A DNA stretch of 4,182 nucleotides from a virus (lineage: Duplodnaviria; Heunggongvirae; Uroviricota; Caudoviricetes), in IMG/VR virus record IMGVR_UViG_2534681774_000009. One strand, given 5' to 3'. Positions 1 to 4,182 of the stretch are shown here, piece by piece (positions within the stretch are counted from its first letter, which is position 1; each line of letters starts with the position of its first letter). The translations under genes were made by a program, and so were the position numbers. The notes under the pieces were generated by a model. The model saw only the letters and a program-made list of their open reading frames with translations, was not told the DNA's origin and did not search any database.

Positions 1-93
1 GAACGCACACGACTGGAAGCATGGGAACGCTACAGCGTTCTGGTCAGCCGTGTGGATACGGCAAATCCTGAATGGCCACAAAAGCCTGAATAA
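1..93 (+). CDS. Tail fibre assembly protein (Tfa family), 3' end only; gene continues upstream of the window
   Basis: Frame 1 is open from position 1 to a TAA at 91-93 and translates [30 protein letters not shown]. This has the same C-terminal pattern (L..W..Y...V...DT....P..PE) as the minus-strand Tfa at 122-655 and as the lambda Tfa C-terminus recalled from memory. It is absent from the ORF track because no start codon lies inside the window. Confidence 0.7.
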
Positions 94-98
94 AAATT

Positions 99-118
99 AA
101 GGCCCGCTATCGGGCCTT
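99..118. terminator. Hairpin between the two converging tfa genes; likely intrinsic terminator, best oriented for the minus strand
   Basis: AAGGCCCG (99-106), loop CTAT, CGGGCCTT (111-118) forms a perfect 8-bp GC-rich stem. On the minus strand it is followed by AATTTTTATTC (complement of 91-98), a T-run. On the plus strand the downstream sequence GTCTCATT is only weakly T-rich. Confidence 0.55.
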
Positions 119-121
119 GTC

Positions 122-655
122 TCATTCAGGTTGTTCGGGAAATGTTACTGGCAGGCTGGAGGTGTCTGTAGATTCGACTTTCTGCGCATAGAGCATCCAC
201 TCAGTTAATTTTTGTTTATTCTCGTCGGAAATGATGCCCAGCCGTAGCTGTGAGTCCCATAGCTGGGTTTTATCCCTGACAAGTTGCAACAGGCTTTGCT
301 TTTCATTCTCTGCCTGCTGCCTCTGTTCCTCCTCGGTATAAGTTCGCTTTATCACTACGCCATCTTTGAACATCCATTTACCCGAAATATCAGCCCGGCG
401 ATTTGCTGTAATATCTGGAACCTCAACGACGCTTGCGCCTTCTGGATTAATTGCTGAAACATCCTTTTCAATACAAATAATAACGTCGTTGTGGTCATAG
501 ACCATTTTCAACGTATCAGGCTGAAAGTTCTTTTGTTCCTCATACCAGTTTTTCCCATCCTCTGTATAAAGCCATTTGATGTTAAATTGTTTCGTTAGCT
601 GGTATTGCTCTTTTGTTTTAGGGTTGCCAGCAGTAATATTTTTTAAGTGCATCAT
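122..655 (-). CDS. tfa: Tail fibre assembly protein (Tfa family)
   Basis: The 177-aa ORF starts MMHLKN and ends ...LTEWMLYAQKVESTDTSSLPVTFPEQPE, with an internal VPDITANRRADISGKWMFKDG segment typical of enterobacterial prophage Tfa proteins. A GGGGAG Shine-Dalgarno (complement of 665-670) sits 9 nt upstream of the ATG at 653-655. Only 2 nt separate it from the stop of the upstream fibre ORF, consistent with translational coupling. Confidence 0.85.
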   Translation of the reverse strand: MMHLKNITAGNPKTKEQYQLTKQFNIKWLYTEDGKNWYEEQKNFQPDTLKMVYDHNDVIICIEKDVSAINPEGASVVEVPDITANRRADISGKWMFKDGVVIKRTYTEEEQRQQAENEKQSLLQLVRDKTQLWDSQLRLGIISDENKQKLTEWMLYAQKVESTDTSSLPVTFPEQPE

Positions 656-657
656 AA

Positions 658-1806
658 TTAAGTACTCCCCGCGTTATACCACGTTCCATTAATGCAATAC
701 TGAATTGGCCTTGCCTGAGTTGTATCAATTAATTCATCACGATTCCCGTTAACTGAACCCGTAACGACATAACCTGACCTGTCAGACCAGCCGGGACCAT
801 TCCATGTCTGAACAGATGACAGACCGCCCAGGCGAATACCTGTAATAAACCTTGAGTTACATTCTGCCTGCGTATATGCACCAACATCCCCCGCAGAGGG
901 TTTGCGGGTTGTGGTGTAAAACTCTGACCAGTCAGCTTCAAAGCCATAACCATCACGCGCTGAACGATAAAAGATACCGCCGTTCTTATAATTCACGCGG
1001 AACTGTACAGCAGGGCAACTCCCCGCATTCATATTGAAGTGGAGGATTAATGTCGATGCGCCACTGATATTTGCGTTATAGACCCCGCTATTCCAGTTCC
1101 AACCAACAGCTTTATCATTTCCGACAGCGCTTCCTGTTTGCCCTAGAGCAAACGCACCTACATGACTTGCTTTTAATGTGATATCGGAGGAACCATCAAA
1201 AGCCACGCCACTTATTTTTCTGGCAGTTTGTAACTTTGTAGCCGTAGATGCATTACCGTTCAAACTACCATTGATGCCGCCATTAACATTGAGTCCATTA
1301 CCGATCGTAACAGCACCATTGGCGTTGTTAATGATAAGCGGCCTTAACCTATTATAGGTTCCTAGGCTGTTACCCGAATCGGTCAACATGAAGCATGTGC
1401 TTGAACCATCGTTTCGGATAAAGAATCCATAGTTGCCATAGGCAATGCGCAGACCATTCGCCGATTTGGAAATAATCTCGCCAGCGAATTTCGCATAGGA
1501 ACCAGTCCTCAAGACTAACTCTTCCTGAGCATCAGTTGTTCCTGTGCATAAGCGATAAACGTTATTCTCTATTGTTTCATGCCATATGCTTGCACCTGTG
1601 CTGGAGCGGAAACGTCGCAGATACATTTTTGCATCGTCAACAACTGACGTGAGCATGTCATGTTTATACTCACTTTGCGGCACGCCATTGCTATTGATTC
1701 CACCCCGAAGAACAGTGCCACCCGGCATAGGTAAAAATGCCATCTTCACCGAAGATCCAATCACCTGAATTAGTACCATTACCGGTTTCTTTATTCGGCG
1801 CAGCAC
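658..1806 (-). CDS. stf: Side tail fibre protein, C-terminal (distal) segment; the annotated start is probably not the real N-terminus
   Basis: Contains NGNASTATKLQTARKISGVAFDGSSDITL (a tail-fibre motif) and ends ...RPIQYCINGTWYNAGST, resembling the C-termini of Stf-type fibres as I recall them. It lies immediately upstream of tfa. Its first ~21 codons overlap ORF 1691-2611 in another frame (see findings). Confidence 0.75.
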   Translation of the reverse strand: MLRRIKKPVMVLIQVIGSSVKMAFLPMPGGTVLRGGINSNGVPQSEYKHDMLTSVVDDAKMYLRRFRSSTGASIWHETIENNVYRLCTGTTDAQEELVLRTGSYAKFAGEIISKSANGLRIAYGNYGFFIRNDGSSTCFMLTDSGNSLGTYNRLRPLIINNANGAVTIGNGLNVNGGINGSLNGNASTATKLQTARKISGVAFDGSSDITLKASHVGAFALGQTGSAVGNDKAVGWNWNSGVYNANISGASTLILHFNMNAGSCPAVQFRVNYKNGGIFYRSARDGYGFEADWSEFYTTTRKPSAGDVGAYTQAECNSRFITGIRLGGLSSVQTWNGPGWSDRSGYVVTGSVNGNRDELIDTTQARPIQYCINGTWYNAGST

Positions 1807-2611
1807 AATTTATCCGGATGCCTGGTCGTCTGTTAGGGTTATCGACACCATCTTTAAATATGTACCCATCAGTTAGTGTTGTGCCGTCATTTTTCGTATA
1901 TGTAAAGCGGATATGACGGCTTGTATGGCTACTAAAAATAAGATCGCTTTTAGTGGTAAGTAATGGAGCTGTCAGACCTCCTAATAATGTGCCTCCGGGT
2001 AGAGACAGCGCGCCAATGTTCTCTGGTGTCAACGAAATATCAGTAGTGCCATCGAAGGTTACTCCGTTGATTGTTCTGGCGGTCTGTAATTTAGTTGCTG
2101 TTGCAGCATTACCATTGAGGTTTCCAGAGCTATAGAAACCACGACCATTGCTAAAATCAATAATTATGTCGACAGCTATACATTCAGCTTTAGGGTTGGT
2201 TGCCCCCCATTTGTATGTGGTTTGTCCAACAATATAATCCGTTGTAGGGACAACAACAGAAAGCCCCTCCTCCACAAGAACGCATACTGGAAATGCTCCG
2301 CCTTCAATATAAAAAACTGAGCTAACTTCATCGTCTTTATTGCTCATCGCAATAGAATGAATCGCCCGTTCTGCATCCTGATAATGCCAGAACATCCCGT
2401 ATGCGTACCGCCCTCTGTCACTCCAACCAGCAGGCATCACAAAACCATTGAATTCGCAGTTGTTCATGCGATGTGCAGCTTGGCGCGGCGCAGTGGAAAT
2501 AATAACCCGAGAAGCAAGTTCACCATTGCTCGTTGCAGATCTCTTGATGACTACAGGATAGAATTTACCCTCTTCAGCTCCAGAAGGAGCATTGACTCTG
2601 GTGAATTTCAT
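1691..2611 (-). CDS. stf: Side tail fibre protein, middle segment
   Basis: The 306-aa ORF contains NLNGNAATATKLQTARTINGVTFDGTTDISL followed by LSLPGGTLLGGL. It is in the same frame as ORF 2627-3205, separated only by a TAG at 2627-2629 and five codons. The ATG at 2609-2611 is preceded by AAAAAAGGG with essentially zero spacing, a poor independent ribosome-binding site. Confidence 0.65.
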   Translation of the reverse strand: MKFTRVNAPSGAEEGKFYPVVIKRSATSNGELASRVIISTAPRQAAHRMNNCEFNGFVMPAGWSDRGRYAYGMFWHYQDAERAIHSIAMSNKDDEVSSVFYIEGGAFPVCVLVEEGLSVVVPTTDYIVGQTTYKWGATNPKAECIAVDIIIDFSNGRGFYSSGNLNGNAATATKLQTARTINGVTFDGTTDISLTPENIGALSLPGGTLLGGLTAPLLTTKSDLIFSSHTSRHIRFTYTKNDGTTLTDGYIFKDGVDNPNRRPGIRINCAAPNKETGNGTNSGDWIFGEDGIFTYAGWHCSSGWNQ

Positions 2612-2626
2612 CCCTTTTTTAAAGGT

Positions 2627-3205
2627 CTACTTCGGCTTTGCTGTAAACATCAATATTTTTTCTGTTAACGCTGCATCAGTTGGTTCTAATGCTCGGCATT
2701 TGCTATCTCCGGTAATCAGAAAGTTACCGTCAATGTCTAATCCGGCATATTTATTGGTGTTGGTATCAGATTGTAGATGTAACGTCAGCCATGAGCGGTT
2801 GCCACTCCTTATCTCTGAATAAATTCTGAAACGACTCCTCTGTACCCCAGCTGAATTATTCAGATAACCACTTACAATCCCTGACGCGGCTAAATCAGCG
2901 TCTGTTGAGTTAACAAGATTGATACCCTTAAATTGGGGGACGTCCGCAACACCTAATCCAAGATTAGTACGCCCTCCAGAGACGCTGGATGCACCTAATC
3001 CCCCATGAGTAATTGGTAAAATACCTTTTATGCCCAGAAGAGCATTTGATGAACCATCAAAGTCGATGGCGTTATCACTTTGGAGGTCAACTTGAAGCGA
3101 CCTTTTGGTTTTCAATTTCGTCGCGGTGTCGGCGTTCCCTGTCAGCGCCCCGGTGATCCCGCCGTTGAAAGTCTGGCATGCACTCCATGTGTTAGCCGTA
3201 CTCAA
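2627..3205 (-). CDS. stf: Side tail fibre protein, proximal variable segment (silent-copy S'v-like); frame is open upstream to 3283 through the crossover site
   Basis: The 192-aa ORF has GNADTATKLKTKR...IDFDGSS and ILPITHGGLGASSVSGGRTNLGLG near its N-terminus. The track start is a TTG at 3203-3205 with no convincing Shine-Dalgarno. The same frame stays open for 26 more codons upstream (EVSGVIISILNLGLRELGTSGEKIPL), crossing the recombination site, as expected for a cassette that must be fused to a constant 5' part by inversion. Confidence 0.65.
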   Translation of the reverse strand: MSTANTWSACQTFNGGITGALTGNADTATKLKTKRSLQVDLQSDNAIDFDGSSNALLGIKGILPITHGGLGASSVSGGRTNLGLGVADVPQFKGINLVNSTDADLAASGIVSGYLNNSAGVQRSRFRIYSEIRSGNRSWLTLHLQSDTNTNKYAGLDIDGNFLITGDSKCRALEPTDAALTEKILMFTAKPK

Positions 3206-3235
3206 CAGGGGGATCTTTTCACCGCTGGTACCGAG

Positions 3236-3252
3236 TTCTCTTAAACCAAGGT

Positions 3253-3261
<9 letters not shown>
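3236..3261. other. Site-specific recombination crossover site for a serine invertase (hix/gix/cix/pix-like)
   Basis: TTCTCTTAAACC-AA-GGTTTAGGATTG is an imperfect 26-bp dyad with the AAACC-NN-GGTTT core. It matches 19 of 26 positions of hixL (TTCTTGAAAACCAAGGTTTTTGATAA, from memory) and has the same central AA at 3248-3249. It sits exactly between the fibre cassette and the invertase gene and contains the invertase stop codon (3253-3255). Confidence 0.7.

Positions 3262-4182
<921 letters not shown>

Follow-up and report, generated by a model that had tools for sequence, protein, structure and literature searches.

The stretch of DNA analyzed here (the window) corresponds to a complete contig, AIHE01000055.1 (4182 bp), from the draft assembly of E. 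coli DEC12E (GCA_000250295.2), and its nearest relatives are E. coli P1-like phage-plasmids of ~90-140 kb. Read from right to left, the minus strand carries the end of an IS100 element, a truncated cin, cixL, a split Sv' fibre cassette and tfa'. The end of IS100 (IS21-family), with the 3' part of istB, was located at 3761-4182 (minus strand); the contig extends 421 nt into this multicopy IS and ends inside the element. The adjoining cin-type serine invertase remnant (3253-3767, minus strand), with matches to Resolvase and HTH_7, comprises residues 17-186 as judged from an alignment with P1 Cin. Next to it, a cix crossover site at 3236-3261, whose sequence matches P1 cixL exactly and whose crossover point is 3248/3249, forms the outer end of a 152-nt inverted-repeat arm at 3108-3259, the partner arm of which lies outside the window and is present in the relative NZ_CP066033 (152 nt, 95%). 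The silent Sv'-type fibre cassette spans 658-3248 (minus strand), and is one gene in relatives and three ORFs here. It is followed by an intact gene for the tfa' (U'-like) assembly chaperone at 122-655 (minus strand; 177 aa; PF02413, E=2e-36), which is equal in length to its CDS in NZ_CP066033. At the left edge, the contig begins inside a U-like tail-fibre assembly gene, the 3' end of which (1-92, plus strand; Caudo_TAP; aligned with the tfa of NZ_CP066033) is convergent and belongs to the expressed cassette.

Gene order and homology identify the fibre stretch as the silent Sv' cassette in the C-segment of a P1-like phage-plasmid. Features of P1/Mu-type segments found here include two convergent cassettes, each with a chaperone and the silent one without its own start, as well as a serine invertase gene that adjoins the segment, although truncated here by IS100, and a 26-bp crossover site at the segment boundary, in the inverted-repeat arm. 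While these defining features are present, inversion in DEC12E itself seems doubtful, as neither cin nor the enhancer is intact. No credible start is present in the fibre frame, which stays open across cix as far as 3283; the cassette proper begins at the cix crossover, and TTG 3205 is no genuine start. Lacking a start codon, such a cassette would depend for its expression on a Cin-mediated inversion that joins it to the constant part of gene S. The cassette is silent in NZ_CP066033 but is in the expressed position in pDEC12A-1 and NZ_CP047013. A search of the window for extra crossover sites yielded a single cix-like 26-mer only, and a multiple-inversion system of the p15B Min type was rejected, there being no additional crossover site inside the segment.

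The window shares with the P1 C-segment, whose Sv' is equivalent to S' in the Mu G-segment, the order U, U', Sv', cixL, cin, which in P1 is headed by S(c+v); moreover, the cixL sites are identical over 31 nt and cin shows ~98% DNA identity. Unlike that of P1, the cassette of the window is ~1 kb longer (~863 vs 519 codons), contains extra internal modules, which some 45 P1-like plasmids and contigs also carry, has undergone three frameshifts and lies beside an IS100-truncated cin. The insertion of IS100 is in the 5' end of cin, where, in the alignment with P1 Cin, the first 16 codons (MLIGYVRVSTNEQNTA) are missing, including the Ser9 position. Ser9 is the catalytic residue of the Gin/Cin/Hin invertases. 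The exact junction is ambiguous, with 7 nt (TGTAAAG, 3761-3767) common to cin and the IS100 end, and it is located inside a stretch (window ~3724-3795) with a match to the inversion enhancer annotated in P1. Since IS100 has removed 16 cin codons and split the enhancer-matching region, the cassette can probably no longer leave the silent position and would be free of selection.

Within the cassette, the plus-strand CTA at 2627-2629 (TAG on the minus strand) ends ORF 2627-3205 (192 aa, ...LMFTAKPK*), and the plus-strand CAT at 2609-2611 represents the ATG of ORF 1691-2611 (306 aa, MKFTRVNAPSG...). The gap from TAG to ATG is 15 nt, in the same frame, and reads TFKKG. A preliminary description of this DNA had reported a TAG in frame between these two ORFs, and both the sequence and the ORFs confirm it at 2627-2629 (minus strand). 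The same description had found the downstream ATG to be without a properly spaced Shine-Dalgarno, which is also correct; the coding strand just 5' of ATG 2611 reads ...GTAGACCTTTAAAAAAGGGATG, and its sole purine-rich stretch, AAGGG, abuts the ATG with a spacing of 0-1 nt. A second break, placed near 1735, is real as well, with ORFs 1691-2611 and 658-1806 overlapping in different frames around 1729.

To locate the lesions, the window was aligned with NZ_CP066033 (L001), NZ_CP047013 (L002) and NZ_CP128959 (L003), and three single-base indels were found to be private to the window. In the full-length alignment with L001, these were the only true indels over window positions 1-3767, and all of them are in the cassette. 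The first is a 1-nt deletion at 2663-2664 (minus strand; AACAG vs AACAAG in relatives), located 1 nt upstream of an A6 run. The second is a 1-nt insertion at 2621-2623 (minus strand; TTT vs TT in relatives) directly before an A6 run, where the coding strand reads CCTTTAAAAAA in the window vs CCTTAAAAAA in relatives. The third is a 1-nt insertion at 1729 (minus strand; ACCTATG vs ACCATG in relatives), 3 nt after a T5 run, which shifts the frame such that ORF 1691-2611 ends at the TAG at 1691-1693.

The deletion, 35 nt upstream of the TAG at 2627-2629, and the insertion, 4 nt downstream of it, are 41 nt apart and cancel each other. It is because of this cancelling frameshift pair, and not because of a nonsense substitution, that the two upstream ORFs share a frame. 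Between the deletion and the insertion 14 codons are shifted, turning the relatives' RKNIDVYSKAEVDL into EKILMFTAKPK*TF in the window; viewed more widely, the junction reads ...ALTRKNIDVYSKAEVDLKKGMKFTRVN... in relatives vs ...ALTEKILMFTAKPK*TFKKGMKFTRVN... in the window. The TAG is invariant in every relative, where it is out of frame and is read GA-A GTA G-AC, i.e., Glu-Val-Asp (E V D); it is the deletion that brings it into frame (2627-2629, minus strand). A point nonsense mutation was ruled out, as the TAG triplet is unchanged in all relatives. During translation, the deletion at 2663/2664 would shift the frame and the ribosome would meet the normally out-of-frame TAG, while the insertion at 2621-2623 would restore the frame 4 nt past the TAG and the insertion at 1729 would shift it again.

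Removing the three lesions yields an 874-residue open frame plus a stop (875 codons, from 3283 to 658), and editing the indels against intact orthologues restores the frame, as is the case for frameshift pseudogenes and for frameshifts in draft sequences. There is very little doubt that these ORFs represent a single fibre cassette broken by three private single-base indels, and no observation speaks against one gene. The preliminary description had proposed one long fibre gene of about 875 codons, extending from the crossover site to tfa and interrupted twice; the long gene is recovered once three bases are repaired, and the breaks at the junction and near 1735 are both real, but the lesions number three rather than two. 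The single in-frame TAG, which had been put forward as the cause of the split, has to be abandoned as the mechanism, as this TAG is invariant in relatives and out of frame there, the lesion being a deletion/insertion pair. The description had also called for a check of population variation at 2627-2629, where none exists, the triplet being the same in all relatives. A search for homologues with a read-through translation had also been suggested; homologues that are continuous across the junction do exist, but replacing the stop alone would not restore the protein.

More than 40 records and contigs of relatives were found, all of which read through, with pEA36_1 and CP042632 carrying one-base deletions of their own. 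The junction was present in 20 complete E. coli genome records and in 27 PLSDB plasmids (overlapping sets); none of these records reaches 99% identity, and the best value, 98.4%, corresponds to exactly the two gaps. When a pattern search that accepted either form was used, 2 IMG/VR contigs and 3 metagenome contigs were recovered, all with the intact AA/TT form. The extra T at 1729 was absent in all IMG/VR and metagenome contigs that cover this third site, and the extra base was likewise absent in the 3 records recovered with a 1690-1780 query. Among ~15 billion proteins, the 192-aa and 306-aa products were found on the DEC12E contig only.

In annotated relatives the cassette is a single CDS, which encodes 832 aa in NZ_CP066033 (silent) and, when fused to Sc, 1431 aa in NZ_CP047013 and 1439 aa in pDEC12A-1. 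The intact allele in pDEC12A-1 (NZ_CP077480), NZ_CP066033 and NZ_CP047013 shows 97.7-99% DNA identity to the window over the cassette. These three have the same modules and the same junction linker as the window; unlike the window, they have no indels and carry a single CDS, and NZ_CP066033 has an intact cin. In a comparison over a common 1.7-kb stretch, 8 of 9 relatives were without private indels, although they had as many as 11 private substitutions; for the window, the counts were 7 private substitutions and 3 private indels. Four of these 7 substitutions are non-synonymous, including an R to C change in the conserved WSARQTF motif.

The junction was also examined in more distant homologues. 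Fibres at 60-66% identity, which belong to other types of phage (among them a lambdoid Stf-like gene and proteins whose N-terminus resembles P2 gpH), read through the linker NI(D/N)VYSK(A/G)EVD(K/L)KKGM(R/K) with no stop. The codon at 2609-2611 (minus strand) corresponds to the Met of the conserved linker ...VYSKAEVDLKKGM(K/R)..., upstream of which homologous ORFs are open for 130-1131 codons. In addition, phrog_6578 matches residues 47-356 of the intact homologue as one stretch across the junction, which is at residue 165. Because the distant frames and phrog_6578 run across the junction, the Met at 2609-2611 is an internal residue of the linker between fibre modules and not a gene start. Three database proteins that start at this Met (P0092, P0095 and P0100) were considered as separate genes and rejected, as their frames are open upstream for 1131, 130 and 545 codons, respectively, with fibre sequence throughout. 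P0100, P0095 and P0092 (L005, L006 and L007, ~4001 each) are truncated gene calls or pseudogene remnants. Among the matches of the 60-66% search, P0046 and P0058 fuse fibre sequence to an unrelated protein; the name "short-chain fatty acid transporter" is given to P0045 and P0054, and "phage terminase large subunit family protein" to P0091. These oddities are probably draft-assembly artefacts or the result of name propagation.

With regard to the origin of the three indels, the odds are roughly even between decay of a real cassette and errors in the draft sequence, each being given somewhat under an even chance and the rest falling to a mixture of the two. If the indels arose as errors of sequencing or consensus calling in the 2012 draft, the real DEC12E plasmid would carry an intact cassette. 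All three indels are within 4 nt of a homopolymer of at least 5 bases, as are 6.6% of cassette positions (P ~3e-4, with the thresholds for distance and run length chosen post hoc). Two of them cancel within 41 nt (chance P ~0.05), which would suit consensus error, and the three-indel configuration is unique among all public sequences checked. The short contig, which ends 421 nt into the IS, might also fit reads of ~400 nt. On the other hand, a consensus with three errors in 2.6 kb would greatly exceed the usual rate and would imply an implausibly poor assembly. The remaining 1.6 kb, which includes cin, tfa' and istB, is free of indels (3 in the cassette vs 0 in the rest, a difference that is not significant, P ~0.2). 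Moreover, long runs keep their length in the window, and run-length miscalling is the commonest homopolymer error.

Just as plausibly, the indels are real, and a cassette that was locked silent by IS100 in cin escapes selection and decays. The loss of Cin residues 1-16 and the position of the IS junction in the enhancer-matching stretch are consistent with such decay, as are the 7 private substitutions, of which 4 are non-synonymous. Relatives with working arrangements are without private indels, and independent frameshifts have occurred in the same A6 runs of pEA36_1 and CP042632, both of which also point to decay. However, the proximity to homopolymers and the cancelling pair would be unexpected for random neutral indels, and in principle the segment could be inverted in trans by an invertase from elsewhere in the cell. 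Trans action is established for the Gin/Cin/Pin/Hin invertases. Exact lookup of four repaired or half-repaired versions of the protein found none of them in the 15-billion-protein collection.

The two relatives with deletions of their own are E. albertii pEA36_1 (NZ_CP117591, L009 ~2540-2620) and E. coli CP042632 (L008 ~2500-2620), in each of which an A6 run has independently been reduced to A5. Like the window, both have single-base deletions in the same 45-nt stretch; unlike in the window, the deletions are inside the A6 runs, are independent and are not accompanied by a compensating insertion. Evidently, the A6-flanked junction stretch is prone to such single-base changes, or to such errors. 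With the linker hit in three independent records (DEC12E, E. albertii pEA36_1 and CP042632), one could propose that this 45-nt linker, with its two A6 tracts and hidden TAG, is a recurrent mutational off-switch for the fibre cassette; this proposal is considered very improbable. If it were true, truncation at the module boundary would be repeated and possibly selected, and would silence or shorten the fibre instead of being noise.

The alternative raised in the preliminary description, that a genuine boundary separates two fibre genes and that the second is translated by coupling or reinitiation at ATG 2611, is refuted by the one continuous ORF in all intact relatives and retains hardly any probability. 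It would be in line with a stop and an ATG 15 nt apart on one strand, and E. albertii pEA36_1 does have an annotated 192-aa CDS that ends at the same TAG as in the window, but this plasmid reaches the TAG via its own A6-run deletion. Coupling would call for a conserved in-frame stop and start, and no intact relative has an in-frame stop here. The missing Shine-Dalgarno and the internal position of the Met in distant homologues argue against a boundary as well, as does the upstream ORF (2627-3205), which has no real start and a frame that is open through cix. Programmed recoding, in which amber read-through or suppression, or frameshifting on the A-rich tracts, would produce a full-length fibre, could draw on the A6 tracts that flank the TAG on both sides, but it is the least credible reading, given that relatives need no recoding (their TAG is conserved but out of frame, in E V D), that read-through would yield 14 scrambled residues for the RKNIDVYSKAEVDL linker and translation would still stop after the 1729 shift, that inspection of the sequence in the relatives' frame shows no canonical X XXY YYZ slippery heptamer at the tracts, and that the cassette is in the silent position.

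The reading of one cassette broken by three indels has consequences for annotation, as one cassette is the source of both GenBank entries, EHX41183.1 (192 aa) and EHX41182.1 (306 aa), which are fragments not to be treated as separate genes or family seeds. It also illustrates that same-frame ORFs split by one stop can come from cancelling frameshifts, and that checking variation at the stop alone is misleading here. If the lesions are real, the window would show, on a small scale, how a phase-variable host-range cassette decays once an IS has knocked out its invertase. The window holds a disrupted copy of a known kind of element; it represents no new biology, and its value is that of an annotation correction.

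The C-terminal 167 residues of the intact homologue (666-832) match the solved receptor-binding domain of Mu S' (8ju3), and residues 554-634 match Mu S and the trimerisation region of T4 gp34. In the third ORF, Pfam searches identified the T4 gp34 C-terminal trimerisation domain (1330-1512, minus strand; E=4e-22) and a weak gp37_C match (862-1143, minus strand), and no family was matched in the two upstream ORFs (2627-3205 and 1691-2611). No structure in the PDB covers the junction module, and monomer models of trimeric fibres are unreliable. Because all three lesions precede the regions that match 8ju3 and gp34, no ORF of the three, as written, could give a working fibre with a Mu S'-like tip.

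The left part of the window (1-1156), which includes the fibre tip, tfa' and the tfa end, is ~95% identical to the S'/U'/U region of Mu, D108 and P1. Identity to NZ_CP066033 is ~95% over this part vs ~99% over 1250-3767. Based on these values, the cassette is best described as a mosaic whose parts meet within the conserved region 1179-1485; misassembly of a chimera across the repeat located there is a conceivable source of the same pattern. The repeat is part of a 307-nt internal inverted repeat (92%) that links the two cassettes (L001 2219-2525/5179-5485; window 1179-1485) and that spans the Gp34_trimer-like region and the GNASTATKLQTAR motif. In NZ_CP066033 and pDEC12A-1, both of which are 97,453 bp, the cix-proximal cassette parts are swapped and the inner part is kept, which implies that exchange has taken place both at cix and at the internal repeat. 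A search for a cix-like core inside the 307-nt repeat of L001 found none, and because this repeat is without a cix-like site, homologous recombination is the likelier cause of the exchange. Along the cassette, the motif GNAxTATKLxTxR followed by ...FDG occurs three times (3101-3139, 2075-2113 and 1219-1257, minus strand), once per module, and the fibre looks like three stacked modules with the Mu S'-like tip at the end.
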